Positions 16,614 through 64,000 of a stretch of DNA of 64,000 bases are shown in pieces. Each line of letters starts with the position of its first letter. Position 1 is the first letter of the stretch. Source of the stretch: Verrucomicrobiota bacterium (GTDB lineage Bacteria; Verrucomicrobiota; Verrucomicrobiia; Palsa-1439); the NCBI GenBank assembly GCA_003152315.1, contig PLZV01000057.1, positions 200,065 through 264,064 of the forward strand, written 5' to 3'. The notes below the pieces were generated by a model. It did no database searches. It saw only the letters and a list, made by a program, of their open reading frames with translations, and had not been told where the DNA came from. Made by a program: the position numbers and the translations under genes.

Positions 16614-16632
16614 GCCGCCAACGTATTATTAG

Positions 16633-20088: not shown

Positions 20089-20091
20089 TCC

Positions 20092-44062: not shown

Positions 44063-44137
44063 TCCGCAGTAGCTCAATGGTGGAGCAGCGCACTGTTAAT
44101 GCGCGGGTTGTAGGTTCGAGTCCTACCTGCGGAGCCA
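44063..44137 (+). tRNA. tRNA-Asn (anticodon GTT)
   Basis: Acceptor TCCGCAG/CTGCGGA, D stem GCTC/GAGC, anticodon stem GCGCA/TGCGC with loop CTGTTAA, T arm GTAGG-TTCGAGT-CCTAC. Discriminator G and CCA. Confidence 0.9.
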
Positions 44138-44331
44138 ATTTCCATCTCGTTGCGCCGCAACGAGGGTTGCCCTCGCAGGTGGGTCAAAAGGGTCAACTGT
44201 CAGGGAAAGTGCCAGGGAAACCGTCGCGAAGCAGCCCTTACGGGGCAATTCGCGCCAATCCGGCCATACCCCGCCAGAACCCCTTAACGCGAAATTTCGC
44301 GCGCCTCTATTATCCTCAAACGGAGAGAGGC

Positions 44332-45402
44332 ATGAAATATCGTTACTGGAAATTCAACCGGAAAGGCACCTGGTACGTCGAAGACGCCGTCACCGGTAAA
44401 CAGGAGAGCCTGCGCACCTCGGACGAGAAGGAAGCGGAGCAACTGCGACACGCCAAGAACGAGGCCACGCGTGACCGCGCGCTTAGCCTGGCGTTGGGGC
44501 GCGCGTATCTCGGCGCGCACGATCCGAAAATGGCGAAGCGTACCTGGGCGGACGTCATGGCGGAGATGTCCAATCACGGGGAGCAAACCACACAGGACCG
44601 CTGTCGGCGTGCCATGCGCAGCAAACCGTTCGACCGGATCCGCCACCAGCAGTTGGTCGAGGCGACCGCCAAGGATCTCTTGGACGTGCTTCGATCGGGA
44701 ACGTCCTCGACGAACCACTTCCTGCGGCGATTGCACAATCTGGCCATCGACCTGGGCTGGCTGCCATGGGTGGTGCTTGCGCCCAAACTGTGGCCCAAGA
44801 TTGAAGCGAAACCCAAGCGAAGTATTACGCATGACGAGCACGTACGCATCGTTTCCGACGACGAGAATCTGGAACGAAGCCTGTATTACGAGGTGCTGTG
44901 GGAGATCGGTGCCTCGCAAAGTGACGGCGCCAAGCTGACGGCGGAAAACGTTGACTGGTGCACCGGCCGGATGGCGTACATCAGGAGCAAGACGAAAACG
45001 AATTGCACGCTGGAAATCGGGCAACGACTTAAAGCCATTCTGAAACAGTTGCCGCCATACGGACTGCTGTTTCCCAATATCGCTCGGGTACCGGCCAAGG
45101 ACCGTGCGGGCGAATTTCGTCGTCGCTGCCGGCGTCTGGGGATCAAGGGCGTGACGCTTCATTCCTACCGGTATGCGTGGGCAGAGCGGGCCGAGACATG
45201 TGGCTACCCGGAGAGGTATTCGCAACAGGCCCTCGGCCATGCCAGCAAGGCTGTCCACCGAGCCTATGGCAGACACGCTCAAGTGACCCTTCCCTCCCTG
45301 GAGGAGTACGAGCAGGCATGCACGGAGCGGAAGATTATTCCGATCAGACGCCAAAACGGTGACGCTGTCGGGATGTCACGCGTAAATGTCAGGCGGCGGT
45401 GA
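44332..45402 (+). CDS. int: Tyrosine-type site-specific recombinase/integrase
   Basis: ATG at 44332. The C-terminal catalytic region has R...HxxR...Y spacing (LHSYRYAWAERA...LGHASKAVHRAY). It is located next to the tRNA. Confidence 0.8.
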   Translation: MKYRYWKFNRKGTWYVEDAVTGKQESLRTSDEKEAEQLRHAKNEATRDRALSLALGRAYLGAHDPKMAKRTWADVMAEMSNHGEQTTQDRCRRAMRSKPFDRIRHQQLVEATAKDLLDVLRSGTSSTNHFLRRLHNLAIDLGWLPWVVLAPKLWPKIEAKPKRSITHDEHVRIVSDDENLERSLYYEVLWEIGASQSDGAKLTAENVDWCTGRMAYIRSKTKTNCTLEIGQRLKAILKQLPPYGLLFPNIARVPAKDRAGEFRRRCRRLGIKGVTLHSYRYAWAERAETCGYPERYSQQALGHASKAVHRAYGRHAQVTLPSLEEYEQACTERKIIPIRRQNGDAVGMSRVNVRRR

Positions 45403-45733
45403 GCGCCATTTTCGCGCACGGCTTTTCGTTCTTGGATTTCCAGTGCTTCGACACGGCCTTGGTGGCCTTGCTCAACCAGACGGTATCCTTCGTAAGCCCC
45501 TCGACATAGACAGCTGAGAAGTATTTGGGGGCATTGGGCGCGGGGGAGCCAAGCGGCTTGAGAAGGCCTGCCCTAATCAGGATAGGAATATCATGGCTTT
45601 CAAACCCCAGCACCCACCCCGCCTCTTCTGAGGTGAGCCGCGCGGGCCAGTGAGCCAGCTTCAATATATCCTCGCGTGTCGCCAAATCCGCCTCGCATCT
45701 ATACCCGTAGGTCGTTTGCCTGCGGTCGCGCAA
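45389..45733 (-). CDS. Hypothetical protein
   Basis: ORF only. It overlaps the integrase 3' end by 14 bp. Confidence 0.3.
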   Translation of the reverse strand: MRDRRQTTYGYRCEADLATREDILKLAHWPARLTSEEAGWVLGFESHDIPILIRAGLLKPLGSPAPNAPKYFSAVYVEGLTKDTVWLSKATKAVSKHWKSKNEKPCAKMALTAA

Positions 45734-46017
45734 CTAGCTCCATGAGGGAGCTTGTGCGACATGCAAATTCTACCGCAAGATGAGGCGCTTGGCGAGAATT
45801 AAATAAGTCGTAAACCTCTGAACAATATACCATTGCGAAGCTAGATGTCAAGCTCGCTTTTGGTCCGGTCGAGAAGCTGCGCGAAGCCGAAACGAACCTA
45901 CGCAAAGCAGATGGGCGGCGGCAAATGCTCAGGGGATGGGCAGGCCTAGCTTGAGCATTTGCGCAAGATGTCTGACAATTACGAGCCGCACCAAAATTAG
46001 CGACTGACCGCTCTTAA

Positions 46018-49000
46018 TCAGGCCGCGGTTTGCCGAATTTTGAAGATTAGTTTCCAGAACTCGACAGCGACCTGCAACGGTAGGCGGTACGCCAATGTGG
46101 TAAACCCCGGCTGTAGATTATTTGCTACGGCAGGCCACTCGACTATACCTTCAAAGAGAAAATCTGCCATTTCGCGGGCCGCTGTCGCTGGGTCGTGGAA
46201 TCTAAGCGCAAGTAGTTCGGCACATTCAATGAATGTCGCCATATGGTTGGGTTTTGTTTGCATTTCTTTTTCTGACAAAGCAATGCGATGAAACAATTTC
46301 TGTACCTCTGCCTTCACCCGCTTTGCTGCCTCCCGATCATCTAAGCGGTTAACTTGGTTTATAATCGTAAAGAGCGCCACCCTCAAACTGCTTGGCTCCA
46401 ACGCCTCTAGGTCGACAAAATTGATGCTCATTATAAAGGTTCGTACTTTATCTCGTAGTGAATCTGGTGCTTTCGTTCGGCCAAGTGTGCCAAAGGCGAT
46501 GACCCATTTGCTTGGCTGATCTGGTTTTCCAAGCAAGTCCGACAATACTGCCTCTGCGTTTGTCAGAATTTGATTTGAACCAAGCAACTTCGCTGGCTCC
46601 GGACCGATTAACGAGGCCAGCGTTTCGCCTTGGTCGCCCCCAAGAAAAGACCCGAGGGCGTTTTCCTGCAGGGCAGGGTCAGCTAGGAATTCGATCCGCT
46701 GTACCCACTTGTCTTCAACTTTGAAAAAGCACAACCCTACTGCTTTCTCTTCCAGTCCGGGGAAGTCAGTGGAGCGGATTCGGGCTTGGGTGAGCGCCGC
46801 AGCAATGCCGCGCGATAAAAATGTCGAACGATTTATTTGGCGCGGATGGGCAACGTCACCGCGCAACTCGTCTCGTGACCCAAATAACTCGTTGGGCACG
46901 GGTTGTGCGGCTTTCTCGAAGAACTCCGCTACTTTCTCCTTAGAACTGCGTTTCCGTAGCAACGTATATAAACGAGTGGCATGAAGCCAACTTGCCGAGA
47001 GAATCGCGAACGAAGACCAATTCTTCGTATCATGGCGGTGTTCTAAATGTAAAACGGTCCAACGCAGAATCTTATCGAGGGCAGAATAATCTATTTCACC
47101 TTCCGGTCCCAAAAGAGAATCGAGAAGTCGCTGAGCGATGGGTCTGCGTTCCGAGCCACCGCTCAAGGCAATACCAAGCAAGTGTAACCGTGACACGGGA
47201 GAAACTGAATGGCTTAATGCATCCTCTAGCCAGGCCGATTGCTCAGTGAGCGACAGTTTTGCGTGCGCCTCCCATATGGCGCCTGGAACAGCTATTGGTA
47301 GTGAAGCGACCCGCAAAAAGGCTTCGGCGAACCCTTCTTCATCTACGAGAGATTTTGCTGCGGCTTCAAACGCTGTCGCGGATTGGCCGGGCTTTGTCTC
47401 TTGGGGCAGACGGAGATGATTCAATAAACCCTGGGATGGGGGCGGCTCAAAATCTGAGAGGTGCAATGATTTCCGCTCGGCCAACTGGGCTTCGAGGTTG
47501 GCATAGAAGGAAGCCGCAGAATTGTTCCTCCAGTGGCGTATTCGTGTGATTCGTTCGGATGGATCGCCCAGTCGCGCCAGACGCTGCACTTGTCTCTCGT
47601 GAGTCTGGGCGTTGCAATCAAACCATTCGCGGTGTGTTATAAGAACTTTTTCCCGTGTCAAAACATCGGGCCTCAAAACCTCAAACAGTGGGTCAGACAT
47701 CCTAAATGTTTTTTCTGGCGTGCCAGTGCTTAATCGTAGCGTTTCACCATCTGCGTCGGAAATGAAGCGCATGGTGAATTCTTGCAGTGGATCGCGTGCC
47801 GTTATTCTTTCTACGCTTCCCTGCACCGCTTTCTTTGCGGCTTGCCAAAACTCCTTATCTTCAAATTTAAAATTGGCAACGACTACAACACGATGCTCTT
47901 TTATCCCGATCCTCTTCAGTGCCCTGGACGAAATGCTCATGTGACTTCGGATTGTTTCTGGCAAGTTGGCATACAGGTCCGACAAGAGAACCTGCAGAAC
48001 TTTGTCCCGTTTCTTTGACTTCGACTTAGCGGGAGACATGGCCTCAAAAAGCCTGCTGAGCTGCCTCCCAAGGGTCTTGTTGGATTCCCAATCTGTTGAG
48101 AAGCGGTTCTGTAACCAATCAAAATAGCCTGCGCGCAGCATCGGACCCTTTTCGTCTGTGCTGCTTAGTCTTGTCGGAGCCTGAATGTACAAGAGTGCAA
48201 TGGTCCCCCCCATTAACTCACGTTCCTGGGCACTATGAGGAGCAAGACCGATTAATCGAGGGGTTGCGCCGCAATCATACCAGAGATTATAAAGTATCCA
48301 ATCCGCGCGCGCTATAGCTGCGCCATCGGTAATCTTCTCATCACACCAGAGGGAGCGAATCGCTTCCCCAGCGGCAGCAAAGAGACCAGTCAAAACATTT
48401 ATCTCACCCGGTTGGCTCCCTTTTCCCATCTGCGCCGGCATACGCAGAGAGTCTCTGTCCTGTAAACACGACGCTACGTAACGCCGTAATACCGACAATT
48501 CTGGAGTTTCGATGATTTTGCCGTCCCTTTCAGTTGCATTATGGAGATCAAAAAGAATCTCCTCTTTCTCGAGGGGGACGTATCTGAAGTTCCCTTTACG
48601 AAGCTGATGTAGTTTCCGGAAGTAACTAGTTTGGTCGAGAACTTTCCGCCTGCGCAATTCATTCAGTATTTCAAGTAGGCCGACCACCGGCAGTTCACCA
48701 CACTTGGAAAACGCATTTATAAACCGGTCGTCAATCCAGACATAGCTTCCTGATGCGCTTTTGGCGTGCAACAATTCTTCCAAACAGGCAGCGTCGGGAC
48801 CCCACGTTTGAGTTGCGCGATCCGGTTTCAAGCTATTACTGACCCCGATAAACTTGTATCTGTCAGCGGCTAAACCGAGGTTTATTCGGTCACGCAATTG
48901 GCGCAGCCATTCTTGAAGATTTCTCTGTTCTTCCACGCGTTTGAGCCCGGCTCTGATATTCGCCGCTTCCCTCGGTTCGATATACACTTGGAAATTCTTG

Positions 49001-50763
49001 CAAGTCTCCCGTAGAATGTCCGCACTTGCGAGCGTTTCGGCAATATTTCCATAAAGAAACAGCGCCGTGCCCGTCGTTAGCATTGAAGGATGTTCCCTGC
49101 TGGCGATCACGGATAGGTGTTGCTGCGCCACCTGTTGCACTTCTTGAGTCAGCTTTCCCTCAGCGGTGAGAGATGTGAGTATGCTGCCACAGCCGGTTAC
49201 AAACTGACTCTCTTCTTCACCGAGTTGAATGATTTCCAGTTCGACACCGCGCTGAAGCGGAAGATAATCAACCAACCTGCCGCCCGCTTGTTTAGCTTGC
49301 TGAAATAAATCAAGCCACTCTATCCCTACTTTGGTTAGCAGCGGATTGTCACGGCTGGCGGATGTATTAACTGGATTTGCAATCCTCAATTCTCCGGACT
49401 CCAGCAGAGCCTGAACCTTTCGCATCGCGTCGATAATACTCGGTTGGTGAGGCACAGCGTCTTCAATTTGTCGATGCAATGCGTGTGTGATGCTCGGCGG
49501 CAAATACAATGGGGCAAATTCTTTTTCGACGATGTCAAGTATGTCCAATTCTGCTGCCAAAAGAACAGAGCTTATGTCTAAGTAAAGGCGGCTCGGAGAA
49601 AGGGTGCCCGAGGTGGCGCCACGCCCGCCGTATCTAATAAAAACTGGCGATGACTGCCCCAACATTTCGTCGCTGCTGTGGAAACGTTCGTGGTAAATCG
49701 CTCCGAGCGCTTTGTTTACGATATGGAGTGGAACACGACCCTGCCGGTATAGTTGGTTCACTTCCGTTAGCCGCGCTCGTTCCGTTTCTCCCTGTTTCAA
49801 CAAATCGGCTAGAGTGACGGTCCAAATGGGGCCATCTTTTCGTTCCGCTGCCTTCGTAAAATCCGGATGAAGCGTTTCAAGCATGTCTTCCCGGTTCAAA
49901 CGAAACGCTAGATCGTAGGCAGTAACTACAAACTCGGCCGAACGCTCGCCACTCTTAACGGCTTTGGAAAGTAGTTCCTGCGCCAGCGGTGAATCCTCTA
50001 CGTAGGTCGCACGAGCCAGTTGTAGAAGCTGCTTTGGGTCGGCATCCTTCCGTGAAAGAATAGCTCGCGCTCCTTCTATCACTCCCTTCGTATCACCGGC
50101 AGCCAGTCTTAGACCAACTAGTTGGTTCAAGTCCTCCAGTAAACCGGTCTCCCGTGCCACCTGCTCAGCCTCGCGGAGCGCTTCGTTAATTAAGCCGAGT
50201 TGTTTTTCGCATTCCACTCGCCAACGCTTTAGATCAATCGGTAATTCCCCATTCGGAAAGAGACGCTCATTGGTGTTGAGCAAGTTCAAGCACTGTTCGT
50301 GTCTCGCGGCGTTGAACACGCCCATGAGCGCAATCCTTAATGCAGCGGGCGTACCTACCAGAGTGAGTAGGTCGTCAGCATGATCGGCAACAAATATCCA
50401 CTCCTTCTGTTGTAGTTTCACTTCACACAACTCGAATAGGTGCAACCCATCCTTTGTTCTGGTGTACAAATCCTCAAGATACGCACCGAGACGGCTTGGG
50501 TCCTTTGTTTGCTTGGCGATTTCTCGTAGAGCGACCGTTTCTAGGGCTATTCGATGTTCTGGGTCATTGATATTCGCAGCGAGAGAGAGGGCCGCTTCCG
50601 GATCACCGCCGGCAATCACGGCTTGTCCTTTCCAAAACAACCAGACACTTTCTTCGCCATCATCCACAAACTTCTGGCGTGACTCATCGACGACTTTCCC
50701 GAGTTGCGCCGCATCGCCTTTGCTGAGTAGCAACGTGAACAGACCGGCCAGCTGAGCTTTCAT
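46018..50763 (-). CDS. Giant (1581 aa) uncharacterized protein; no P-loop, protease or nuclease motif recognisable by eye
   Basis: Single uninterrupted ORF. A 4-bp ATGA overlap with the upstream PNP-TPR gene suggests translational coupling. Its composition looks AT-richer than the core. Confidence 0.7.
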   Translation of the reverse strand: MKAQLAGLFTLLLSKGDAAQLGKVVDESRQKFVDDGEESVWLFWKGQAVIAGGDPEAALSLAANINDPEHRIALETVALREIAKQTKDPSRLGAYLEDLYTRTKDGLHLFELCEVKLQQKEWIFVADHADDLLTLVGTPAALRIALMGVFNAARHEQCLNLLNTNERLFPNGELPIDLKRWRVECEKQLGLINEALREAEQVARETGLLEDLNQLVGLRLAAGDTKGVIEGARAILSRKDADPKQLLQLARATYVEDSPLAQELLSKAVKSGERSAEFVVTAYDLAFRLNREDMLETLHPDFTKAAERKDGPIWTVTLADLLKQGETERARLTEVNQLYRQGRVPLHIVNKALGAIYHERFHSSDEMLGQSSPVFIRYGGRGATSGTLSPSRLYLDISSVLLAAELDILDIVEKEFAPLYLPPSITHALHRQIEDAVPHQPSIIDAMRKVQALLESGELRIANPVNTSASRDNPLLTKVGIEWLDLFQQAKQAGGRLVDYLPLQRGVELEIIQLGEEESQFVTGCGSILTSLTAEGKLTQEVQQVAQQHLSVIASREHPSMLTTGTALFLYGNIAETLASADILRETCKNFQVYIEPREAANIRAGLKRVEEQRNLQEWLRQLRDRINLGLAADRYKFIGVSNSLKPDRATQTWGPDAACLEELLHAKSASGSYVWIDDRFINAFSKCGELPVVGLLEILNELRRRKVLDQTSYFRKLHQLRKGNFRYVPLEKEEILFDLHNATERDGKIIETPELSVLRRYVASCLQDRDSLRMPAQMGKGSQPGEINVLTGLFAAAGEAIRSLWCDEKITDGAAIARADWILYNLWYDCGATPRLIGLAPHSAQERELMGGTIALLYIQAPTRLSSTDEKGPMLRAGYFDWLQNRFSTDWESNKTLGRQLSRLFEAMSPAKSKSKKRDKVLQVLLSDLYANLPETIRSHMSISSRALKRIGIKEHRVVVVANFKFEDKEFWQAAKKAVQGSVERITARDPLQEFTMRFISDADGETLRLSTGTPEKTFRMSDPLFEVLRPDVLTREKVLITHREWFDCNAQTHERQVQRLARLGDPSERITRIRHWRNNSAASFYANLEAQLAERKSLHLSDFEPPPSQGLLNHLRLPQETKPGQSATAFEAAAKSLVDEEGFAEAFLRVASLPIAVPGAIWEAHAKLSLTEQSAWLEDALSHSVSPVSRLHLLGIALSGGSERRPIAQRLLDSLLGPEGEIDYSALDKILRWTVLHLEHRHDTKNWSSFAILSASWLHATRLYTLLRKRSSKEKVAEFFEKAAQPVPNELFGSRDELRGDVAHPRQINRSTFLSRGIAAALTQARIRSTDFPGLEEKAVGLCFFKVEDKWVQRIEFLADPALQENALGSFLGGDQGETLASLIGPEPAKLLGSNQILTNAEAVLSDLLGKPDQPSKWVIAFGTLGRTKAPDSLRDKVRTFIMSINFVDLEALEPSSLRVALFTIINQVNRLDDREAAKRVKAEVQKLFHRIALSEKEMQTKPNHMATFIECAELLALRFHDPATAAREMADFLFEGIVEWPAVANNLQPGFTTLAYRLPLQVAVEFWKLIFKIRQTAA

Positions 50764-52700: not shown

Positions 52701-52720
52701 GAAACGGAGTAGTTCCAGCG

Positions 52721-53101
52721 CTACTGGTCTCGCAGCCAGACAAGAATCTCGCTCGCCGATTTAGGAAACAACACACGTACCGCTAGGGCAATTTCATCTC
52801 TATCAGAGGGGTGGCGGCGCCACCGGAGTCTTAGCTCCAGCATCCACTCGTAAAAGGGTTCCCGCTCTCTATCCCTGAGATCAATCTCCTTCTTCTGCTG
52901 TCTCAACCCGACTCGGATCTCTGCCTCTTCGAGACGGTATAGTACCTTGCCGCTCAACGCACGTTTCCCGGTCTTCACATAGTGAAGCATTACTTTACTC
53001 ACGCCGAGTTCCTGCGAAACCCGCTCCCACGTCCATCCCTGTTTGAGGCGAAGGCGCTGGATTCGTGGGAAAATTAACTTTAATTCACTTTTCACTTGCA
53101 A
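52721..53101 (-). CDS. XRE-type helix-turn-helix transcriptional regulator
   Basis: HTH block LRLKQGWTWERVSQELGVSKVMLHYVKTGKRALS. The start is TTG at 53099-53101 or GTG two codons in. It is the first gene of the minus-strand operon. Confidence 0.55.
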   Translation of the reverse strand: MQVKSELKLIFPRIQRLRLKQGWTWERVSQELGVSKVMLHYVKTGKRALSGKVLYRLEEAEIRVGLRQQKKEIDLRDREREPFYEWMLELRLRWRRHPSDRDEIALAVRVLFPKSASEILVWLRDQ

Positions 53102-53113
53102 TATAGTTAATCT

Positions 53114-53365
53114 ATGTTAACTTCTCCTATGTTAGCAGAGCGACATATGCAACACCAGTCGAAACGAAGTGACCGCGAGTACTTGACCTCCACGGAGGTC
53201 GCTGACCTGTTGAGGGTGTCCTTGCGGACAGTAGTCAATCTGCGTCGTCGCCGTGTCATTCCGCACCTCAAGATTGGCAGGTTGGTGCGCTTCTCCCGTG
53301 AGCAAGTGGAGTTAGCGCTGAGATCATACACGGTCACCCAAGTGCAGACTCATGTAGGCGAATAA
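53114..53365 (+). CDS. xis: Excisionase / AlpA-MerR-like HTH DNA-binding protein (start ambiguous: 53114, 53129 or 53147)
   Basis: The block YLTSTEVADLLRVSLRTVVNLRRRRVIPHLKIGRLVRF is typical of excisionase-family HTH. It lies immediately upstream of the integrase. Confidence 0.55.
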   Translation: MLTSPMLAERHMQHQSKRSDREYLTSTEVADLLRVSLRTVVNLRRRRVIPHLKIGRLVRFSREQVELALRSYTVTQVQTHVGE

Positions 53366-53378
53366 AGTCTTGGAACGA

Positions 53379-54572
53379 ATGACAACCAGCGTGGCAATCA
53401 AAGTCAATCGGCGAGGCAAGGTTTGGCCGCTGATTTACCGGCGCCGGTATCCCTCTGGCTTGGCGTCCTTCGTTGTTGATGCGGGGAAGCAGTCAGATGG
53501 AAGACGGATTCGTCGGACGTTCCCAACGCGAGGGGAGGCGGAGACTTTTGCCGAGCAGAGGCGGACCGAGAGGGCGAACGAGGGTACCATGACGAACGCT
53601 GTTCCGTGGGAGATTCGCCGGGAGGCAGCCATCTGCGCGGCCAAACTCTCGCCGTATCGTGCGAAACTTACTGAGGCAGTCGATTACTATGTTCAACAAG
53701 TGCTGCAGTACCGGACTTCACCCAGCGTGTCAGACGTGATCAAGCGAATGCTCGATGAACTGAAGGCCGGAGGACGGCGCGAAACAGCCATCCGCACGTT
53801 GCGCTGTTTCCTCGGTGGAGCCTTTACCCTCCAGTTTGGTGAGCGACAGTTGTCGACGGTTGCCCTGGACGAACTCAACGTCATCTGTTTGGTGCCCGAT
53901 CTGCAACCCCGCACCCGTCTGAATCGCATTCGGATGGTTTCGCAACTTTACAACTACGCGGTCAAGCACGGCTGGGTCAGTGGCAATCTGGCCGAACGCA
54001 TCGTCAGGCCTATTCTGGAGAAGAAGGAACCGGGTTATCTCGATGTAGATGCTGCGCGACGCTTCCTCGAACACGCGGATGAATTTGGTTTGTTGCCCTA
54101 CGCGGCCATCGGTCTGTTCGCGGGTGTTCGCAGCGCTGAATTGCTCCGCCTGGACTGGTCGGCAGTCAATCTTATCGACCGGGAGATCACCATCGGATCG
54201 GAGATCGCCAAGACGCGATCGCGCCGCGTCATCCCGTATGGTGACGACCTCGCGGCTTGGCTCAAGCGATGTGCGCGCTGCAGCGGACCGGTGGTGAATC
54301 CCAATAATTTTGAAGGCAACTTTGGCAGGCTCAAACGCGCGGCCGGAATCAAAAATTGGCCACAGAACGCGCTCCGCCACAGCTTTGCGAGCTATCATGT
54401 CGCCCAGTATCGGGATCCGGTACGGACGGCCTATCTGCTGGGGCATCGGGGTGGCACCGATATGCTCGACAGCCATTACCGCGGACTCGTTAGCAGCGCC
54501 AAGGCAAAGGAATTCTGGGCGCTGCGTCCCAGTGGCCAGATGGTGCAGGCCGCGCTAAGGGACGCGGCGTAG
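53379..54572 (+). CDS. int: Tyrosine-type site-specific recombinase/integrase (second copy)
   Basis: ATG at 53379. The catalytic region carries RSAELLRLDW...HSFASYHVAQ...GHRGGTDMLDSHYRG. Confidence 0.8.
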   Translation: MTTSVAIKVNRRGKVWPLIYRRRYPSGLASFVVDAGKQSDGRRIRRTFPTRGEAETFAEQRRTERANEGTMTNAVPWEIRREAAICAAKLSPYRAKLTEAVDYYVQQVLQYRTSPSVSDVIKRMLDELKAGGRRETAIRTLRCFLGGAFTLQFGERQLSTVALDELNVICLVPDLQPRTRLNRIRMVSQLYNYAVKHGWVSGNLAERIVRPILEKKEPGYLDVDAARRFLEHADEFGLLPYAAIGLFAGVRSAELLRLDWSAVNLIDREITIGSEIAKTRSRRVIPYGDDLAAWLKRCARCSGPVVNPNNFEGNFGRLKRAAGIKNWPQNALRHSFASYHVAQYRDPVRTAYLLGHRGGTDMLDSHYRGLVSSAKAKEFWALRPSGQMVQAALRDAA

Positions 54573-54584
54573 GGAGATATTCTC

Positions 54585-56828
54585 ATGGCGAACCTTGACG
54601 AAAAACTTGATCGGGAGACGATCCGTGTGGCAGCGCTGACTAGGCGCATGTGCGTAGAAGTGGGCTGCGGCCGACTTTGTCCAGAAGCGTATGCGGTCGG
54701 GATTCTCTCGTTTGGTCCAAATGCCGCCACCCAAGCGGCAGTCGAGATCGGCGGGAACCTTAACGTGCTAACCGACCGCTGTCGGAAAGTATTGGAATCC
54801 CGTATGAGTATTCATGAGAATCCGGCGGGCGGCTATTTTCAAGTCAGTCTCGATGATTCGTGCGGTGCTATGTGGCGTACGGCGGCGCAGTATCGGACGA
54901 CAGCGCGAGCACCACGTATCGGAGCGTTCCATGTTCTGCTCGCCATCCTTAAAACAACCCCGGCCGTCGCCTCGGTCTTCGAAGGCGTTGGGATCGGGTT
55001 GCCGGCTTTGGAAGCGAAGCTGCGCATCCGCCCCCGACAGGAAAGTCCGCGCGCACCCGCGGCCGGGTTGCCGGCCAGTATTGGTAACCGGCCCGACGAA
55101 CTACCGGTGCGGACTGATAACCCGTTGGCAGCATTCTGCATTGACCTCACGGCTATGGCCGCCGCCGGCCAACTCGACCCGGTAGTTGGTCGTGGGCGCG
55201 AGATCGACCGTATCATCACCACGCTGTGTCGGAAGAAAAAGAACAACCCGTTATTGGTGGGCGCGGAGGGGACAGGTAAGACGGCCATAGTCGAGGCCCT
55301 CGCTCAACGTCTCATCCTCGGCCACGTACCGCATCAAATTGACGGACGACGAATCTACTCGGTAGACATGGCGCGGCTCGTTGCCGGCACACTATATCGT
55401 GGCCAGTTTGAGGAGCGTCTCAAGGCGTTGCTGGATGCCGCTCGACAGAACCGCAACTGCATTTTGTTCGTCGACGAGGCGCACACGATTATTGGTGCCG
55501 GCAGTGCCGTCGGGACTCTCGACGCCAGTAACATCCTGAAACCGGCGCTGGCCCGCGGAGAGATCACCTGTATTGCTGCCACGACCGAGACCGAGTACCG
55601 GAAGTACTTCCGCAAAGACAAGGCGCTCGATCGTCGGTTCCAGCGCATTGCAGTCAACGAGCCAACGACGGAGGAAACAGTTGCCGTGTTGAAAGGACTG
55701 CGCGTCTCACTGCAGCGGTACCACCACTGCACGATCACCGATGAAGCGCTCACGGCGGCAGTCGAGTTGTCCGGGCGCCACATCACCGACCGTTCTTTCC
55801 CCGATAAAGCGATCGACGTCATCGATGAAATGGGAGCCCGGTTCGGCGCGACCGGACTACCATTGGGCCGGGAGCAAGTGGCCCGCACGGTCGCCGACCA
55901 ACTCGGGGTTCCGTTGGAGACGGTCTTGCCAAACGATTCTCACCGCGGGCATCTCGTCGAAACCGAACTAAGGCGATTGGTGGCCGGGCAGGGGAGTGCG
56001 ATCGAAGCCGTAGTGCAGGCGGTGCGTCGCGCGTTCTTGCCCTTGCGCGATCCGCTCCGTCCGCTGGCGAGCCTGGTCTTTGGCGGGCCGTCCAGTGTCG
56101 GCAAGTCCTACATCTCGCAGATTGTCAGTCGGCACCTCTATGCTTCGGCACCCCTCATCCGCATCAATTTGGCGGAGTACGCCGAGAAACACAATGTCAG
56201 TCGGCTGTTTGGTTCACCGCCGGGCTATATTGGGCACGGCGACAGCAATCAACTCACCGACCGGGTCATGCGCCATCCGCACAGTGTGGTGCTGTTCGAC
56301 AATCTCGACAAGGCGCACCCCGAAGTGTTGATGGCGATCATGGAATTGCTCGACGCCGGCATACTCACGGACGGGCAGGGGAATGAGGTAAGTTTTCGGA
56401 GCGCGTTCATCATCCTGACGACGGTCGCTGGCAGCACTGGGTCGGTGAAGGAGGCAGTTGGGTTCGGGACGGCGAAGTCTGACCGTAACCGTCGCCATCT
56501 CATAGAAGCCTGCCGGAACCTTTTTGGCGACGAGTTTGTCAATCGAATCGACGACTTTATCCCGTTCACTCCACTGGGGCCGTACGAACTGGCGGGAGTT
56601 GCCCGCTTGACGTTCGAGGAGGTTTCCCGGCGGTTGGCCGGGAATGGCGTGACGTTGCGATGTGATGACGAGGTGTTCCAGCAGCTTGGACGCGAGAACG
56701 GCCATGCGCGCGCTGTGCGCGCGGCTATCAGGAACGAGATAGAACCGCTCATCTGCGATATTCTCGCCTGCGTACACACGCTAGGCGTCCACGTTCGATG
56801 GAAGGACGGTCGCTATGTCGTCGAGTGA
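54585..56828 (+). CDS. ClpA/ClpC-like double-AAA+ ATPase with Clp_N repeat domain; D2 Walker B Glu replaced (DNLD instead of DEIE)
   Basis: N-terminal Clp_N-like repeats. D1 has Walker A GAEGTGKT and Walker B ILFVDEAH. D2 has P-loop GGPSSVGKS and Walker B VVLFDNLDKAH. There is no ClpB-type middle domain. Confidence 0.8.
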   Translation: MANLDEKLDRETIRVAALTRRMCVEVGCGRLCPEAYAVGILSFGPNAATQAAVEIGGNLNVLTDRCRKVLESRMSIHENPAGGYFQVSLDDSCGAMWRTAAQYRTTARAPRIGAFHVLLAILKTTPAVASVFEGVGIGLPALEAKLRIRPRQESPRAPAAGLPASIGNRPDELPVRTDNPLAAFCIDLTAMAAAGQLDPVVGRGREIDRIITTLCRKKKNNPLLVGAEGTGKTAIVEALAQRLILGHVPHQIDGRRIYSVDMARLVAGTLYRGQFEERLKALLDAARQNRNCILFVDEAHTIIGAGSAVGTLDASNILKPALARGEITCIAATTETEYRKYFRKDKALDRRFQRIAVNEPTTEETVAVLKGLRVSLQRYHHCTITDEALTAAVELSGRHITDRSFPDKAIDVIDEMGARFGATGLPLGREQVARTVADQLGVPLETVLPNDSHRGHLVETELRRLVAGQGSAIEAVVQAVRRAFLPLRDPLRPLASLVFGGPSSVGKSYISQIVSRHLYASAPLIRINLAEYAEKHNVSRLFGSPPGYIGHGDSNQLTDRVMRHPHSVVLFDNLDKAHPEVLMAIMELLDAGILTDGQGNEVSFRSAFIILTTVAGSTGSVKEAVGFGTAKSDRNRRHLIEACRNLFGDEFVNRIDDFIPFTPLGPYELAGVARLTFEEVSRRLAGNGVTLRCDDEVFQQLGRENGHARAVRAAIRNEIEPLICDILACVHTLGVHVRWKDGRYVVE

Positions 56829-57237
56829 AGTCAGCAATCATCGCTGCCAGACCGTCGGGTTCCCCAGCGCGTTGTTGGTGCGGGTGGTGAAGGCCAACGC
56901 GACGATCACGTACGAAGGGATAAGTCCCGACGGTGATCTCACGTTCACAGTACCTATGCGGGACTTCGGGCTGAGTCGCACCGTGATGGCGCGTACCCCG
57001 ACCGCGCAAACGAGCTTCTTCGTGAACCTGGTGGGCGAGCTGTTGGTGCGCAAGAACATCGCGGTGTTTGCCGAGGTGCTAGAGAAGCTGGATCCGAAAG
57101 ACTACGACCGGATGGTCAATTGTTTCCGGCACCGGCACTTTGGGATGACGGTGGAGACGAATGATCTGCTCCGCTTCCGGTTCCACAGCTCGCTGGTGCA
57201 GCACATCCTGACCGAAGATCTGGAAGGTGTCGTATGA
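56815..57237 (+). CDS. Hypothetical 140-aa protein, translationally coupled to the ClpA-like gene
   Basis: 14-bp overlap with the upstream gene. The stop overlaps the next ATG (ATGA). Confidence 0.45.
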   Translation: MSSSEVSNHRCQTVGFPSALLVRVVKANATITYEGISPDGDLTFTVPMRDFGLSRTVMARTPTAQTSFFVNLVGELLVRKNIAVFAEVLEKLDPKDYDRMVNCFRHRHFGMTVETNDLLRFRFHSSLVQHILTEDLEGVV

Positions 57238-57386
57238 GCGTCGATCAGTTCCGGCATGAATACTTCCCAATCCCGCACCTGCACCAAGCCTTCGCTCTCC
57301 TGTCGTCCCGGTTTCTGGCTGCCCGGAAGAATCACATCGACAACAGCAACGGGGAGCTTGCTGGTTTCCTGCAGGATGCGCGATGA
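57234..57386 (+). CDS. Putative 50-aa micro-ORF bridging the 140-aa gene and the beta-CASP nuclease gene
   Basis: Its ATG overlaps the previous TGA (gtATGAgc) and its TGA overlaps the next ATG (cgATGAgc). It is absent from the ORF track because it is under 60 aa. It encodes MSVDQFRHEYFPIPHLHQAFALLSSRFLAARKNHIDNSNGELAGFLQDAR. Confidence 0.3.
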   Translation: MSVDQFRHEYFPIPHLHQAFALLSSRFLAARKNHIDNSNGELAGFLQDAR

Positions 57387-59502: not shown

Positions 59503-59841
59503 ATGAGTAAAATCGAAGACCTAACATTAACCGGGAAATCTGGAACAAAGTACACGTTCCAGATGTACCCTTGGGAGACGGAATTCCGAGCCCTTGGCGG
59601 TGTCTATATCATCACCAAGCGGACGGCGACCCGCGGTGGGGGGACGCATTCGCTTATCTACATTGGACATACTGGAAACCTGGCTGAACGTTTCAACAAC
59701 CATCACAAGGCCGACTGTTGGGAGCGGCATGGCGCCAATTGCATTGGCATACTGCTAGAAGAGAGCGAGACGAAACGCCTCGAGATCGAAGCCGACCTCC
59801 TGGCGGCGTACGATTGGCCCTGCAACGAGGTGGGTCAGTAA
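59503..59841 (+). CDS. GIY-YIG nuclease-family small protein
   Basis: ATG at 59503. It has GVYIIT, then R, then LIYIGHTGNLAERFNNH, matching GIY-(10-11)-YIG, Arg and Asn spacing. Confidence 0.5.
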   Translation: MSKIEDLTLTGKSGTKYTFQMYPWETEFRALGGVYIITKRTATRGGGTHSLIYIGHTGNLAERFNNHHKADCWERHGANCIGILLEESETKRLEIEADLLAAYDWPCNEVGQ

Positions 59842-59901
59842 GATGAGACCCTAGGCGACCGCCGATTCCCGTCGGCGGTCGCCAAGCCGAAAGTTTAAAA
59901 A

Positions 59902-60495
59902 ATGAAGAATCTTGGAGAGATCGCGGAAGTCCGAGCGGGATACACGGTTCGCAAACCGGAGAAGGGCGTACCCACGGTCAGGTATCGAGTGTTGCAAATC
60001 AAAGACGTGACGGCGGACGCCGCATTGGACACCGCGAATCTGGCGACCATGAACTTGCCGCCAGTATCGGACCGCTATTTTTTGAAACACGGGGACATTC
60101 TCTTCTGCGCGCGCGGCGCGCGCAATCGAGCAGCCGTGAGCGAGGTCGAGATGGAACAAGTCGTTGTCGGCGCCCAGTTCTTCGTGATTCAGGTTAAGGG
60201 GGATCGCCTGTTGCCCCGGTATGTAGCCTGGTACATCAACCAGCCGACCGCGCAGCAGTACTTCAGTGAGCGCGCCTCTGGAAGTTACGTGCGGATGATC
60301 CTCGTCGATGATCTGCTGCATCTACCTGTACCGGTCCCGCCACTGAAAGTTCAGCAGCAGATTGCTGCGTTGCATCAACTGGGGTTGCGGGAGCAGAATC
60401 TCCTCGAACGGCTCCGTGTGAAGCGGATGGAACTGCTTAACGGGTTATGCATCGACGTTGCCGGAGGACACAAGCGAATTTCGAAAGGAGTCTAA
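59902..60495 (+). CDS. hsdS: Type I restriction-modification specificity subunit (short, single target-recognition domain)
   Basis: The N-terminal LGEIAEVRAGYT and the C-terminal conserved helical region (LPVPPLKVQQQIAALHQL) are typical of HsdS. It sits immediately upstream of hsdM. Confidence 0.6.
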   Translation: MKNLGEIAEVRAGYTVRKPEKGVPTVRYRVLQIKDVTADAALDTANLATMNLPPVSDRYFLKHGDILFCARGARNRAAVSEVEMEQVVVGAQFFVIQVKGDRLLPRYVAWYINQPTAQQYFSERASGSYVRMILVDDLLHLPVPVPPLKVQQQIAALHQLGLREQNLLERLRVKRMELLNGLCIDVAGGHKRISKGV

Positions 60496-60497
60496 AT

Positions 60498-62045
60498 ATG
60501 AGTGGCACTATTTCCCAAGATCAAATCAACCGGGCTGCATGGGCGGCGTGTGATACATTCCGGGGCACGCTCGATCCGGCCAACTACAAGGACTACATAT
60601 TGACAATGTTGTTCTTGAAGTATCTGTCCGACCTGTGGTTGGACAAGAAGGAAGAATACGAGCGACGTTACGACGACGACAAAGAGCGGGTCGAGCGGGC
60701 GCTTAGTCGCGAGCGGTTCATCGTACCAGAGGTGATCCTCCGGGACGATCAGAACTCCAAGAAAATTGTTGATCGTTTCCCCGCCACCTATTACAGCCTG
60801 TACGAGCGCCGTGATCGGACCAACATCGGCGAATTGATCAACATCACCTTGGAGCGCATTGAAGAAGCGAACAAGGAGAAGCTGGAAAACGTCTTCCGCA
60901 ACATAGATTTCAACAGCGAGCCATTCCTGGGTCAGACCCGTGAACGCAACCGCTGCTTAAAAAGCCTGCTGGAGGACTTCCACCGGGACGAACTTAACTT
61001 CCGCAAGGATCACGTCGGCCACCTCGATATCCTTGGCAACACGTACGAATACCTAATCGGCAATTTCGCTGCCGATGCCGGGAAAAAGGCCGGGGAGTTT
61101 TATACCCCCGCCTATGTGTCTATTCTACTGGCGAAACTGGTTCGGCCAAAACCGGGAGATCGTATCGGCGATCCAGCTTGCGGTTCTGGTTCACTCTTAC
61201 TCAAGGTGGCGAACGAGGTGCCGGATGGGAACTGCTCTCTGTACGGCCAGGAGATGAACGGCAGTACATGGGCGCTTTGCCGGATGAATATGTTCCTTCA
61301 CGAACGCGACAGCGCCCGTATTGAATGGGGCGATACGTTGAACAACCCGAAGCTCATTGAGAATGACGCACTGATGAAATTCAACGTGGTCGTGGCCAAT
61401 CCTCCATTCTCTCTCGACAAATGGGGTGCGGAAGATGCCTCGGGCGACAAGTTCAATCGCTTTTGGCGCGGCGTCCCGCCAAAATCCAAAGCTGACTATG
61501 CGTTCATCAGCCATATGATCGAGACGGCTGTGGAAGGCGACGGCCGGGTCGCTGTGGTCGCGCCGCACGGGGTGCTGTTTCGCGCCGGCGCCGAAGGCAA
61601 GATCCGGCAAAAGCTCATTGAAGAGAACCTGCTGGAGGCGGCCATCGGATTGCCGGCCAATTTGTTCTTCGGAACCGGTATTCCCGTTGCGGTCCTACTC
61701 TTCAACAAGGGTAAGAAGACTACGGATACACTGTTCGTGGATGCCAGCCGCGAATTCGAGGACGGCAAGAACCAGAACAAACTGCGCGCGCAAGACATCG
61801 ATAAGATCATCAGCACCGTCCGGGTGTTCAAGACCGTCGAGAAGTACGCCTACCGGGCCACGCTCGCCGAAATCCGCGAGAACGATTTCAATCTCAACAT
61901 CCCGCGGTACGTGGACACTTTTGAGCAGGAGACAGAAGTGGATGTTATTGCAGTGCAACGAGAAATCGATGATTTGGAGAAGGAACTTGCCGAAGTGCGC
62001 AAGGAGATGACTAGACATCTCGCTGAACTTGGATTTGCGAAATAA
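60498..62045 (+). CDS. hsdM: Type I restriction-modification DNA methyltransferase subunit
   Basis: HsdM_N region. The SAM-binding motif DPACGSGSLL and the catalytic motif VVANPPFS are present. Confidence 0.9.
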   Translation: MSGTISQDQINRAAWAACDTFRGTLDPANYKDYILTMLFLKYLSDLWLDKKEEYERRYDDDKERVERALSRERFIVPEVILRDDQNSKKIVDRFPATYYSLYERRDRTNIGELINITLERIEEANKEKLENVFRNIDFNSEPFLGQTRERNRCLKSLLEDFHRDELNFRKDHVGHLDILGNTYEYLIGNFAADAGKKAGEFYTPAYVSILLAKLVRPKPGDRIGDPACGSGSLLLKVANEVPDGNCSLYGQEMNGSTWALCRMNMFLHERDSARIEWGDTLNNPKLIENDALMKFNVVVANPPFSLDKWGAEDASGDKFNRFWRGVPPKSKADYAFISHMIETAVEGDGRVAVVAPHGVLFRAGAEGKIRQKLIEENLLEAAIGLPANLFFGTGIPVAVLLFNKGKKTTDTLFVDASREFEDGKNQNKLRAQDIDKIISTVRVFKTVEKYAYRATLAEIRENDFNLNIPRYVDTFEQETEVDVIAVQREIDDLEKELAEVRKEMTRHLAELGFAK

Positions 62046-62095
62046 CATAGATAATGCTATGTATTGTACGTGATATACGCGAAATAAGTAACAAT

Positions 62096-62701
62096 ATGCC
62101 GAATATGCTTACATTAGACGTCATAGAGAAAGCCCTAAGGTTGCTTTCGCAGCGTCTTGACCTGATCCAGAGCGACCCGCTGCAACTTGTTGTTTGTGGC
62201 GGCACCGCTCTCATTGCTACCAATCTTCGGCAAGGCACTACAAAGGATGTAGACATTGTAGCACTAATCAATGCACACAACGAGCTTCTCAGCCCGGCTC
62301 CATTGCCAGCGGTCCTTCTTGAACAAGCCGACCAAGTCGCGCGCGACCTTGGATTGTTTGACAACTGGCTCAACAATGGGCCCAGTAGCGGCGATGGCGG
62401 GTTGTATCAGATGGGGCTCCCGGACGGATTCGTCGCCCGGCTCACGCCACGAAAGTTTGGATCTCGCCTGACGGTCCATTTCATTGGGCGACTCGACCAG
62501 ATTCATTTCAAACTCTACGCTGTTGCCGATCAACAAGGCGGCGTTCATGTGGCCGACCTCCGCGCCCTCAAACCTGCCGACGCTGAACTCGAATCCGCTG
62601 CCCGTTGGGCAATGACGCACGACGTTTCCGATAATTTCAAAATGGTCTTGAAGGAGACTCTCAGAGAACTCGGCCATGAATCAGTCGCTCAAAGAATTTA
62701 A
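62096..62701 (+). CDS. Nucleotidyltransferase-fold protein resembling AbiEii/DUF1814-type toxins (start uncertain, 62054 or 62096)
   Basis: The segment VCGGTALIATNLRQGTTKDVDIV is GG-x14-DVD, which fits a minimal NTase motif. It is embedded between hsdM and the second hsdS. Confidence 0.4.
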   Translation: MPNMLTLDVIEKALRLLSQRLDLIQSDPLQLVVCGGTALIATNLRQGTTKDVDIVALINAHNELLSPAPLPAVLLEQADQVARDLGLFDNWLNNGPSSGDGGLYQMGLPDGFVARLTPRKFGSRLTVHFIGRLDQIHFKLYAVADQQGGVHVADLRALKPADAELESAARWAMTHDVSDNFKMVLKETLRELGHESVAQRI

Positions 62702-63689
62702 ACAACAATACCGAGGGCTTTTGCTGAACTTCATCTGGCGGCAGTGGTCGGCCCTGGGAGTGGCCGGCCACTCAGCAGGCGAAGACACCTGGGTGATCGA
62801 CCCCGAGCCACTACTCTTGTTCACATGCACCATTGGCCGTCACGATCCTCGTGTGTTCGACGAAGTGCTCGATTGGCTCCAGGAGAATGGCCGGTTCATC
62901 AACATTCTCCGTCTCAAACGGATCCTTGGGAAAGAGAAATTCGCTGGCGCCAGCGTGCTGGCCGCCATCGCGGGACAAATGAGCAAAGGCACCGGCGTCG
63001 CCAAATGGAAACTATTGGCCGAGCATTCCAGACGCTCCACAAAGCCGGAGCCGTTGTTTTTCCAAGAGGACGGCCACCCGCTACCAGTCGTGGGCGAGCC
63101 TGAGCCGCAATTCTTGCAGTACGGTTTCAAGCGCGGACCACTGCGCCTGCGCGGCTACTCCCAGAAGTTCCGGCCGACGGAACGGACGAACCTCACCCTG
63201 CAACTTCGGGCGCTGCTTGGCGTGAATAGCCGGTGTGAAGTCGTCCTCTATCTATTAACGCACGATTCGGCGCACCCGTCGCAAATCGCCCAGGACGCGT
63301 ACTACTTCGAGCGGGCCGTCCAGAACACGTTGGTGGACATGAGCCAGTCGGGCGTCATTCAGTTGCGAACTTCCGGCCGCGAGAAGCATTATTGGCTCAA
63401 GCACGAGCACTGGGCAACGCTGTTGAACCGCCCCGATCCGTCTCCGAGATGGGTTACCTGGCCGCCCTTATTCAGCGCGCTGGAACGCATCTGGCTCAAA
63501 GTAAGTGACCGACAACTGTCGACGCTCGATCCGTTGCTCCAATCGTCGGAACTGCGGCAGCTGATGGTCGAAGTGCGCCCGTCTATCGAACGCGCCGGAT
63601 TCGATAGGGGGTTGTCCGATGACCGCCAATATCTCGGCGAGAAATACCTACCGGTGTTCTTGGACGACATCACCAGGCTTCTTGGCTAA
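62676..63689 (+). CDS. Hypothetical protein (possible partner of the NTase-like gene)
   Basis: The ORF overlaps the upstream gene by 26 bp. No motif recognised. Confidence 0.4.
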   Translation: MNQSLKEFKQQYRGLLLNFIWRQWSALGVAGHSAGEDTWVIDPEPLLLFTCTIGRHDPRVFDEVLDWLQENGRFINILRLKRILGKEKFAGASVLAAIAGQMSKGTGVAKWKLLAEHSRRSTKPEPLFFQEDGHPLPVVGEPEPQFLQYGFKRGPLRLRGYSQKFRPTERTNLTLQLRALLGVNSRCEVVLYLLTHDSAHPSQIAQDAYYFERAVQNTLVDMSQSGVIQLRTSGREKHYWLKHEHWATLLNRPDPSPRWVTWPPLFSALERIWLKVSDRQLSTLDPLLQSSELRQLMVEVRPSIERAGFDRGLSDDRQYLGEKYLPVFLDDITRLLG

Positions 63690-63691
63690 CC

Positions 63692-64000
63692 ATGGACGCG
63701 CCCACTCTCCATGCCAGCCGCAAGACGAAGAAGACGCAGTTCGGGGAAATTCCTGTCGATTGGGGTGTGTCGAAATTGGATCACGTCGCGATCGTTCAAA
63801 CCGGCTTGGCTAAAGGGAAGAAGGGCATCAAGAATCCCGCAGTGTTGCCGTACTTGCGCGTCGCCAACGTGCAGGACGGCTATTTCGATTTGGCTGAGAT
63901 AAAAACAATCACAGTCGAGCGGTCCGAGATTAATCGCTACAGCCTGCGAAAGAACGACGTTCTTCTGACCGAAGGAGGCGACCTTGATAAGCTCGGACGG
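63692..64000 (+). CDS. hsdS: Type I restriction-modification specificity subunit, N-terminal part (truncated by window end)
   Basis: ATG at 63692. It is not in the ORF track because there is no stop in the window. The segments FGEIPVDWGVSKLDHVAIVQTG...PYLRVANVQDGYFDL are typical of an HsdS TRD start. Confidence 0.6.
   Translation, partial: MDAPTLHASRKTKKTQFGEIPVDWGVSKLDHVAIVQTGLAKGKKGIKNPAVLPYLRVANVQDGYFDLAEIKTITVERSEINRYSLRKNDVLLTEGGDLDKLGR

Follow-up and report, generated by a model that had tools for sequence, protein, structure and literature searches.

A probably composite and eroded defence island at a tRNA-Asn gene of an uncultured Verrucomicrobiota bacterium

We analyzed a 64,000-nt stretch of DNA (the window) from a Verrucomicrobiota bacterium (GenBank assembly GCA_003152315.1, contig PLZV01000057.1, positions 200,065 to 264,064 of the forward strand), in which a tRNA-Asn gene is directly followed by an island of about 27.3 kb with three integrase genes (Int1, Int2 and Int3) and defense-related cargo. 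The island is real and fairly ordinary, and its borders are now defined. Based on sequence comparisons, we read it as a composite, eroded defense island in a hotspot anchored at tRNA-Asn, not as a clean tandem pair of elements, and we put the probability of this reading at about 0.6. The island appears fixed and no longer excisable via the tRNA-Asn.

The island was probably built stepwise from four parts, presumably in the following order. An Int1-type integrative mobilizable element (IME) would have integrated in the 3′ end of tRNA-Asn; its tRNA-proximal 1.6 kb (the attL arm, Int1 and a small gene resembling a helix-turn-helix [HTH] protein) would survive, and its relaxase end and attR have presumably been lost. 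An AT-rich two-gene cassette with a PNP_UDP_1 domain (the PNP cassette) would be a recent acquisition. A second element family would have supplied a backbone consisting of a divergent HTH_3 gene followed by Xis-Int2, a ClpA-like gene, h140, an AAA+ gene (internally deleted here) and a beta-CASP gene. Finally, a variable cargo bay, with a GIY-YIG gene and a complete type I restriction-modification (RM) system in which nucleotidyltransferase-like (NTase) and p337 genes, DUF4917 and YgjP are nested, would be closed by Int3 and a conserved att-like arm. We infer these integration steps from comparisons of the junctions. The type I RM system would restrict unmodified DNA and the PN-type nucleosidase would serve as a nucleotide-degrading abortive effector, both presumably protecting the host.

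The window, cut at 64000, holds the left two-thirds of the island, which runs from 44138 to about 71363-71514, some 7.4 kb beyond the window end. Coordinates past 64000 are extended coordinates, that is, the window plus L001 (JGI 3300055138, a 412-kb contig), one of several contigs retrieved by a look-up with the last complete window protein; it is identical to the window across 11,325 overlapping nt, and L113 is identical over an additional stretch, reaching 81.3 kb. The nearest genome relatives are Verrucomicrobiia metagenome-assembled genomes from SPRUCE, MFD and bog sites, and the host is an uncultured organism of peat and bog metagenomes. The slot that the island occupies, bounded by tRNA-Asn and an ABC-transporter gene, is hypervariable. 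Its integrase genes, with starts at 44332, 53370 and 70075, are dispersed, 9 and 17 kb apart; Int2 and Int3 are paralogues that share 39% identity from end to end, and neither is related to Int1. Domain searches found no relaxase or type IV secretion system (T4SS) domain in any island open reading frame (ORF), a search of a plasmid collection gave the tRNA as its sole match, and a search of IMG/VR found no relatives of Int1, Int2 or the beta-CASP protein.

The left border is fixed by synteny. The block MtnA-(MtnB)-HAD-tRNA-Asn is kept in 28 related Verrucomicrobiia species-representative genomes, similarity ends at the tRNA end, and past the tRNA the relatives share almost nothing with each other. 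None of these genomes carries the island: downstream of the tRNA, two of them (L038 and L031) have a homologue of Int1 plus orf114, followed by other cargo, one (L062) has a YgjP-like fragment, and nothing else is shared. The broken synteny supports the view of the first-pass annotation that an acquired, defense-loaded island lies at the 3′ end of tRNA-Asn, and the layout it described (an integrase just after the tRNA and a second one with an Xis-like HTH protein 9 kb on) was likewise borne out. The tRNA itself is intact and identical in sequence to that of the island-free relative L050, and the Int1 ATG lies 194 nt downstream of its 3′ end. The 3′ end of the tRNA is also the exact point at which two Logan contigs of the same species terminate, a hint that the assembly graph branches here. 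Genes downstream of the tRNA in relatives were considered as a candidate ancestral flank and rejected; what L019, L030, L050 and L035 share there are TPR-repeat proteins, which are unreliable for synteny.

The first 194 nt of the island form an element-borne arm linked to Int1. An alignment of the first 123 nt past the tRNA showed that a palindrome and two tandem 12-nt repeats, AAsTGyCAGGGA (CAGGGAAA), at 44195-44218 are common only to L038 and L031; the 25 relatives without Int1 lack the arm and have other conserved arms or unrelated sequence in its place. A promoter-like site follows at 44284-44313. The palindrome does sit just after the tRNA as the first-pass annotation had reported, but one base to the left of the position given there (44146-44164, not 44147-44165), with perfect 9-bp arms at 44146-44154 and 44156-44164. 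In L031 it shows a compensatory change (CTCG..CGAG to CCCG..CGGG). The annotation had taken it for either an att core or the terminator of the tRNA gene. Since the region is shared only with Int1-bearing relatives, it is element borne and linked to Int1 and is not a terminator of the core genome; it belongs to an arm traveling with Int1 and is not an att core. As an intrinsic terminator it was rejected as well: it has no T-run, it was not called, and such palindromes are not enriched over shuffled sequence (5 equally good ones in the window versus 1.5 expected; 30 shuffles gave at most 5). Just beyond the palindrome, the 3′ end of tRNA-Asn recurs in imperfect inverted form (44122-44138 versus 44167-44183, 13/17 positions matching), which is partly mirrored in L038; these copies may be core-type binding sites for the integrase. 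In L011 (3278+, sample ERZ28658954), a 26-bp deletion at the equivalent of about 44200-44226 has left a single CAGGGAAA repeat of the pair, as would fit a decaying Int1 recombination site.

Int1 is 61% identical to its homologue in L038, which occupies the same position after tRNA-Asn, and in both proteins the first catalytic Arg is replaced by Ser (GASQSD in Int1). A tblastx comparison showed that the small convergent gene orf114 is kept together with Int1 in L038 and L031; its product gave no Pfam match and is a possible candidate for a directionality factor. Single-sequence AlphaFold models were unusable (predicted local distance difference test scores of 44 for orf114 and 43 for NT215, the NTase-like protein of the bay). 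The L038 element also carries a TrwC relaxase-helicase, which places the Int1 family among the integrative mobilizable elements.

The first-pass annotation had proposed two tandem integrative elements, and it had looked to a direct repeat of the tRNA-Asn 3′ end further downstream as the mark by which that model would stand or fall. We searched for such repeats by pattern matching with 3 mismatches in 16 to 25 nt, by blastn-short with word size 7 and by self-BLAST of the island. Within 37 kb downstream (to 81.3 kb), there is no second copy of the tRNA-Asn 3′ end or of any stretch of the 273-nt region of tRNA plus arm, and on this point the simple model fails. The island self-comparison also yielded no repeats linking the borders of the modules. 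The same search detected a perfect 47-bp attL/attR repeat in L062, our positive control, and would therefore have detected an attR here. The L062 repeat lies 4.9 kb past the tRNA and spans the region from the anticodon loop to the 3′ end plus AT; at 12268-20469 that genome has a 4.9-kb decayed segment with an AAA_25 fragment, then the att repeat, and after it a YgjP-like fragment and, on the minus strand, an integrase of 403 aa. L062 is a genuine tandem array at tRNA-Asn.

The same tRNA-Asn is thus a proven multiuse attB in this lineage, three different conserved arms follow it in different relatives, and the island has several integrases, one of them with an Xis, all of which would suit a classical tandem accretion in which two or three elements entered the same attB serially and the att copies then mutated past recognition. 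We nevertheless regard this model as quite unlikely. No module boundary shows a tRNA-Asn fragment, even a degenerate one, the 20-bp gap between the HTH_3 and PNP genes is too small for an att site, Int2 and Int3 are of another integrase family than Int1, and their homologues elsewhere do not lie beside tRNA-Asn (L102, discussed below, has no tRNA at all). With three integrases of two unrelated families and no att repeats between the modules, the notion of two tandem elements found no support.

The right end of the island was located by a three-way comparison. L099, a metagenome contig from a lineage about 95 to 97% identical, matches the extended sequence only from 71363 rightward. L102 was found through its 88%-identical beta-CASP homologue and matches the island at 53224-57277, 57280-59021 and 70061-71514. 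About 150 bp (71363-71514; L001 18688-18839) are common to all three sequences in the alignment, the left side being shared with L102 only and the right side with L099 only. We would expect this pattern at an att junction, or at the very least at an element terminus, and it puts the right junction 75 to 225 bp past Int3. On the minus strand, the segment has a T-arm-like motif and an acceptor-like pairing of 6/7, and it is flanked by GCGTCAC(N4)GGCGTCAC repeats. The same T-arm-like motif follows Int3 homologues in L102, L107 and L116, and the layout is kept in four contexts. These homologues likewise close defense-laden segments; the segment in L102 has Lamassu-like genes, that in L107 AbiEi/AbiEii and that in L116 a type I HsdR. 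The segment is not a tRNA. We considered the motif as a real tRNA, a transfer-messenger RNA or a relic of tRNA-Ser and rejected these candidates: ARAGORN called nothing, Rfam gave a mascRNA-like hit with an E value of 3.7, and an alignment with the tRNA-Ser of L040 was unconvincing. A T-arm-like stretch to the left of the L102 backbone had no Rfam support and was also set aside.

To the right of the junction, at L113 13260-16609 (about 73.3 to 76.7 kb), the ABC transporter looks truncated, consisting of the binding protein (SBP), one permease and a 166-aa fragment, with an IS110-family transposase next to it; the right flank itself is thus disturbed. One could accordingly imagine a single large intact element whose attR lies more than 37 kb from the tRNA and whose cargo includes the ABC-transporter genes and the insertion sequence. 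The incomplete look of the transporter and the transposase after it would fit, as would the finding that no relative has such genes after tRNA-Asn. We consider this highly improbable, because L099 and L097, of the same 95-to-97%-identical lineage, share the SBP flank and diverge to the left of 71363, marking a junction there, L102 shares the Int3 end only to 71514, and no tRNA-Asn repeat occurs up to 81.3 kb.

Within these borders, base composition sets one of the parts of the composite island clearly apart. The core range was taken from 16 core ORFs. The segment at 46 to 53 kb (the 1581-aa, PNP-TPR and HTH_3 genes) is sharply AT-rich, with a GC content of 0.50 to 0.515, GC at third codon positions of about 0.5 and codon z values of about −3. 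The first-pass annotation had called the whole of the sequence between and after the first two integrases AT-rich and the integrase genes core-like; this held for 46 to 53 kb and for the integrases, but Int2 through beta-CASP (53.4 to 59 kb) is core-like as well (GC of 0.58 to 0.60), and the RM part is only mildly low. Within the bay, NT215, YgjP and, less so, DUF4917 are atypical in composition and codon usage (z of about −3 for the first two). Elsewhere in the window, a low-GC islet at 13454-15139 (GC of 0.50 to 0.52), beside an ECF sigma factor, carries genes for a DUF6998 protein and a restriction endonuclease of the Mrr_cat type and is possibly another small acquired defense locus.

The AT-rich segment is largely made up of the PNP pair. 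The PNP protein matches the PADLOC model "Effector PN-superfamily" (E = 2.7e-46), and the 1581-aa partner (GC of 0.51, codon z of −2.8) belongs to a rare family with 17 matches, one of which, a 2191-aa protein, bears a PNP domain and is thus a fused form. The pair recurs in L111 at 95%/88% identity, adjoining GmrSD, Vsr and Dcm genes, and a second time at about 31% identity, adjoining a ParE-like gene; the PNP gene always precedes the 1581-aa gene in L111 and L112. Neither Int1 nor HTH_3 was found near these two other copies. The PNP-TPR and 1581-aa genes form an independent, self-contained portable cassette.

The next part, the Int2 backbone, is present in L102 at 87 to 89% nucleotide identity in another chromosomal context, with Lamassu-like cargo instead, and its DNA homology to the window stops at 59021. 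In protein terms, Int2 is 87% and the Xis-like protein 72% identical to the L102 counterparts, and the HTH_3 regulator, which ends just 20 bp away from the start of the PNP gene, shares 39% identity with the protein in the same position. Motifs of the RHRHY type are present in the Int2/Int3 alignment. The ClpA-like protein falls under every NCBIfam Clp cutoff and has only weak PDC-M37B and DolB matches in PADLOC. Homologues of h140 occupy the same slot in L102, L104, L107 and L108. Downstream of h140, L102 has 1.1 kb of extra DNA, and a full 422-aa AAA+ gene fills this slot there (8736-10004 region) and in L107; the first 15 and last 19 aa of h50 match the ends of the L102 AAA gene. Because h50 is thus an in-frame deletion remnant of the AAA+ gene, the ClpA/beta-CASP operon of the window is probably a degraded four-gene cassette.

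The backbone also occurs in other combinations. In L108 to L110, the layout is the same with a large serine recombinase replacing Xis-Int2. In L108 (5125-11740), and also in L109 and L110, this recombinase overlaps the start of the ClpA-like gene and is followed by 147-aa, 184-aa and beta-CASP genes, with HTH_3 divergent upstream. In L104/L105 (7149-11734), a trio of ClpA, 145-aa and beta-CASP genes, 64 to 67% identical, stands among defense-like genes without a recombinase in the trio; it comes from the same metagenome sample as the window and lies beside T5orf172/ResIII, an Eco57I-like methylase and a serine recombinase. The beta-CASP protein has more than 1,300 homologues, and at about 50% identity its gene stands alone. 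Integrases resembling Int2 in L026 (1-875) and L040 (1776-3103) start about 130 to 185 bp from the 5′ end of a tRNA-Thr and a tRNA-Ser, respectively, and are divergent from it, a placement that is unusual for elements integrating at tRNA 3′ ends.

The last part is the cargo bay, of which the coordinates, like those of the other features, are collected in Table 1.

Table 1. Features of the tRNA-Asn island and its anchor (positions past 64000 are extended coordinates)
Feature	Position	Strand	Evidence and remarks
tRNA-Asn (GTT)	44063..44137	+	ARAGORN; intact; left anchor of the island
Element-borne attL arm	44138..44331	+	Palindrome, two tandem 12-nt repeats, promoter-like site
Int1, tyrosine recombinase, 356 aa	44332..45402	+	PF00589, E = 1.3e-7
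orf114 (98-aa small protein)	45389..45685	-	Convergent with and overlapping Int1; HTH-like stretch, read from the sequence
1581-aa protein, PNP partner	46018..50763	-	Weak PF24407 match only; AT-rich
PNP_UDP_1 nucleosidase domain with C-terminal TPR, 646 aa	50760..52700	-	PF01048, E = 1.6e-12
HTH_3 (cI/Cro-like) regulator	52721..53095	-	PF01381; divergent from Xis-Int2; backbone member
Xis-like HTH_17 protein, 72 aa	53147..53365	+	PF12728, E = 3.3e-13
Int2, tyrosine recombinase, 400 aa, TTG start	53370..54572	+	PF00589; about 9.0 kb from Int1
ClpA/ClpB-like double AAA+ ATPase, 747 aa	54585..56828	+	AAA_2, AAA, AAA_lid_9
h140, small protein	56815..57237	+	Between ClpA-like and beta-CASP genes; no family match
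h50, 50-codon in-frame remnant	57234..57386	+	Deleted 422-aa AAA+ gene
MBL/beta-CASP (RNase J-like) nuclease, 553 aa	57383..59044	+	RMMBL, Lactamase_B; partial RNase J matches
Small GIY-YIG protein	59503..59841	+	PF01541, E = 1.1e-5; weak PDC-S14 match; first gene of the variable bay
Half-size HsdS, one target-recognition domain	59902..60495	+	PF01420
HsdM, type I methyltransferase	60498..62045	+	N6_Mtase, E = 4e-101; HsdM_N
NT215, minimal nucleotidyltransferase-like protein, 215 aa	62054..62701	+	GG(T)...DVD motif read in the sequence; DUF6036 subthreshold
p337, weak winged-HTH signal	62676..63689	+	Overlaps NT215; no family above threshold
Full-length HsdS, 5′ part in the window	63692..64000	+	Rest past the window end
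Full HsdS, DUF4917, HsdR, YgjP-like peptidase, Int3; then ABC-transporter binding protein	Beyond 64000 (up to Int3, next 7.3 kb)		
Int3, tyrosine integrase	70075-71289 (L001 17400-18614)		

Past the window end, DUF4917 (PADLOC PDC-S21, E = 1e-122) lies between hsdS and hsdR, and the YgjP-like gene follows hsdR. NT215 is nested within the RM operon (codon z of −2.6). The first-pass annotation had labeled it an AbiEii-like NTase, and of this label only the generic NTase motif is left: NT215 has no PF08843 or DUF6088 match, even at E values up to 5, and no BLASTP similarity to the genuine AbiEi/AbiEii pair of L107. Searches of Protein Data Bank sequences found nothing for NT215 or p337. The half-size HsdS is 29% identical in protein to the N-terminal half of the full HsdS, with no DNA repeat shared; a phase-variable hsdS shufflon was considered and rejected, since the hsdS copies share no DNA similarity and the island has no internal repeat of at least about 30 bp.

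The other domains named by the first-pass annotation (PNP_UDP_1 with TPR, ClpA/B-like double AAA+, MBL/beta-CASP, GIY-YIG, Methylase_S and HsdM) were recovered as described. Several recognized defense genes are clustered on the island, namely a complete type I RM system, PDC-S21 and a PN-superfamily effector domain, to which defense functions can be ascribed by family membership only, and we infer defense roles for the other cassettes, whose homologues elsewhere adjoin Lamassu-like, AbiE, GmrSD and Dcm/Vsr genes. The statement that all of the cargo is conflict related accordingly stands for these three and is only plausible for the rest.

The island could consist of two elements and not three, with Xis-Int2 through Int3 forming one 18.7-kb mobile element that is bounded by recombinases on both sides and potentially able to move even now. 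Such an element would consist of the ClpA/AAA/beta-CASP core and an exchangeable bay and would have landed beside or inside the decayed Int1 element. We think this unlikely. The left backbone and the right Int3-plus-arm do co-occur in the unrelated context of L102 with only the middle cargo swapped, h140-AAA-beta-CASP is found together with an Int3 homologue in L107, the catalytic sites of both Int2 and Int3 look intact, and an Xis and a cI-like regulator are present. However, no direct or inverted terminal repeats surround 52.7 to 71.5 kb here, nor are there any in L102; the ClpA trio also stands where there is no recombinase (L104/L105) or where a serine recombinase is present but Int3 is not (L108); the AAA gene of this copy is deleted; and the island is in all strains, with no polymorphism seen. 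The last point comes from 18 + 18 contigs bearing the flanking HAD protein or p337, every one of which has the island; those long enough are 99.4 to 100% identical across it, without differences in gene content, and no presence/absence polymorphism was seen among these sampled strains.

A related proposal, which we put forward tentatively and hold to be rather doubtful, is that the segment from HTH_3 and Xis-Int2 to Int3 represents an undescribed family of integrative "defense-carrier" elements in Verrucomicrobiota with three features. Its front recombinase may be exchangeable, being a tyrosine integrase with Xis in some cases and a large serine recombinase in others. Its conserved four-gene core (ClpA-like, 140-aa, 422-aa AAA+ and beta-CASP) could be a new defense system or a module for element maintenance. 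Its bay may swap whole defense systems (type I RM, Lamassu-like, AbiE) and be closed by an Int3-type integrase, the att arm of which may mimic the T-arm and acceptor of a tRNA.

Several observations weigh against an eroded composite assembled by integration. None of the genomes or contigs examined has an empty site, in which tRNA-Asn would adjoin the right flank, and the insertion is therefore deduced from broken synteny and not demonstrated. A metagenome scan with the right-flank SBP protein gave two short useful contigs and no empty site, and L099 does not qualify as a simple empty site, its left 1.15 kb being absent from the window. The closest genome with sequence past the tRNA shares only about 86% MtnA identity, so the hotspot could have been reshuffled other than by site-specific integration. 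A search for a second copy of the 150-bp segment at the right border found none, and the segment could be a conserved element terminus and not an att core. Int1, Int2 through beta-CASP and HsdM/S/R are compositionally indistinguishable from the core. Finally, the Int2 backbone and the bay that Int3 terminates may be a single element or two.

Among known systems, IMEs in tRNA 3′ ends resemble the left end of the island, where a member of the Int1 family lies about 195 nt past tRNA-Asn and is followed by a small convergent gene, to which L038 adds TrwC. Unlike an IME, the copy in the window has no relaxase, no candidate oriT and no attR, and only the first 1.6 kb of the IME backbone remains. Having no relaxase or T4SS domain, the island was rejected as an integrative and conjugative element or IME in its present state. 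Tandem arrays arise when integrative elements accrete at one tRNA attB. The island has several recombinase modules in a row after one tRNA as such arrays do, but it has no att copies between its modules and its integrases are of different families, whereas L062 has its 47-bp repeat.

In the citation of Bardaji et al. (2017) given in PMC10121019, GInts, or the Tn6571 family, have three adjacent integrase genes and a short gene at one end. The island shares with them three tyrosine recombinase genes and defense cargo, and it was rejected as a GInt on the grounds that its integrases are 9 and 17 kb apart, of two unrelated families and not consecutive. L117 (1993-7647) has three closely spaced genes for tyrosine recombinases (451, 403 and 403 aa), with an overlap between the last two, and one of the three is 62% identical to Int3; this arrangement resembles recombinase-in-trio or GInt-type elements and is more GInt-like than the island.

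The bay is comparable to type I RM loci with nested defense genes such as PDC-S21/DUF4917 and YgjP-type peptidases, in that HsdM, HsdS and HsdR are all present. It differs from them in the extra half-size HsdS, the NTase-like/p337 pair between hsdM and hsdS and the lack of recombinase-driven hsdS shuffling. An AbiE toxin-antitoxin system was rejected, there being neither an AbiEii (PF08843) nor an AbiEi partner of the DUF6088 type.

In Proteobacteria, it is well established that elements bearing integrases at tRNA hotspots carry defense islands. The present locus has the same tRNA-hotspot defense-island organization in a phylum of uncultured soil and peat bacteria and changes no concept. Its practical value lies in candidate systems: the PNP-TPR and 1581-aa pair, which is rare, portable and fused in one homologue, and the ClpA/h140/AAA/beta-CASP cassette, which stands repeatedly directly behind site-specific recombinases. 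It is also a worked example of how attR searches fail on eroded islands and three-way comparisons can yet fix their borders.

Integrase-only and multi-integrase defense islands at tRNA hotspots have been cataloged in E. coli (Hochhauser, Millman & Sorek 2023, PMC10121019). The locus differs from those islands in belonging to Verrucomicrobiota, in its unrelated integrases, in having no flanking att repeats and in a hotspot that is filled in every sampled strain, whereas there it is filled in a minority. As in E. coli, defense genes are clustered at a tRNA hotspot with integrases and no other recognizable mobility genes, several systems stand together, and backbones of the same type carry different defensive cargo from genome to genome. 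The E. coli islands are the closest described situation to the one reported here.

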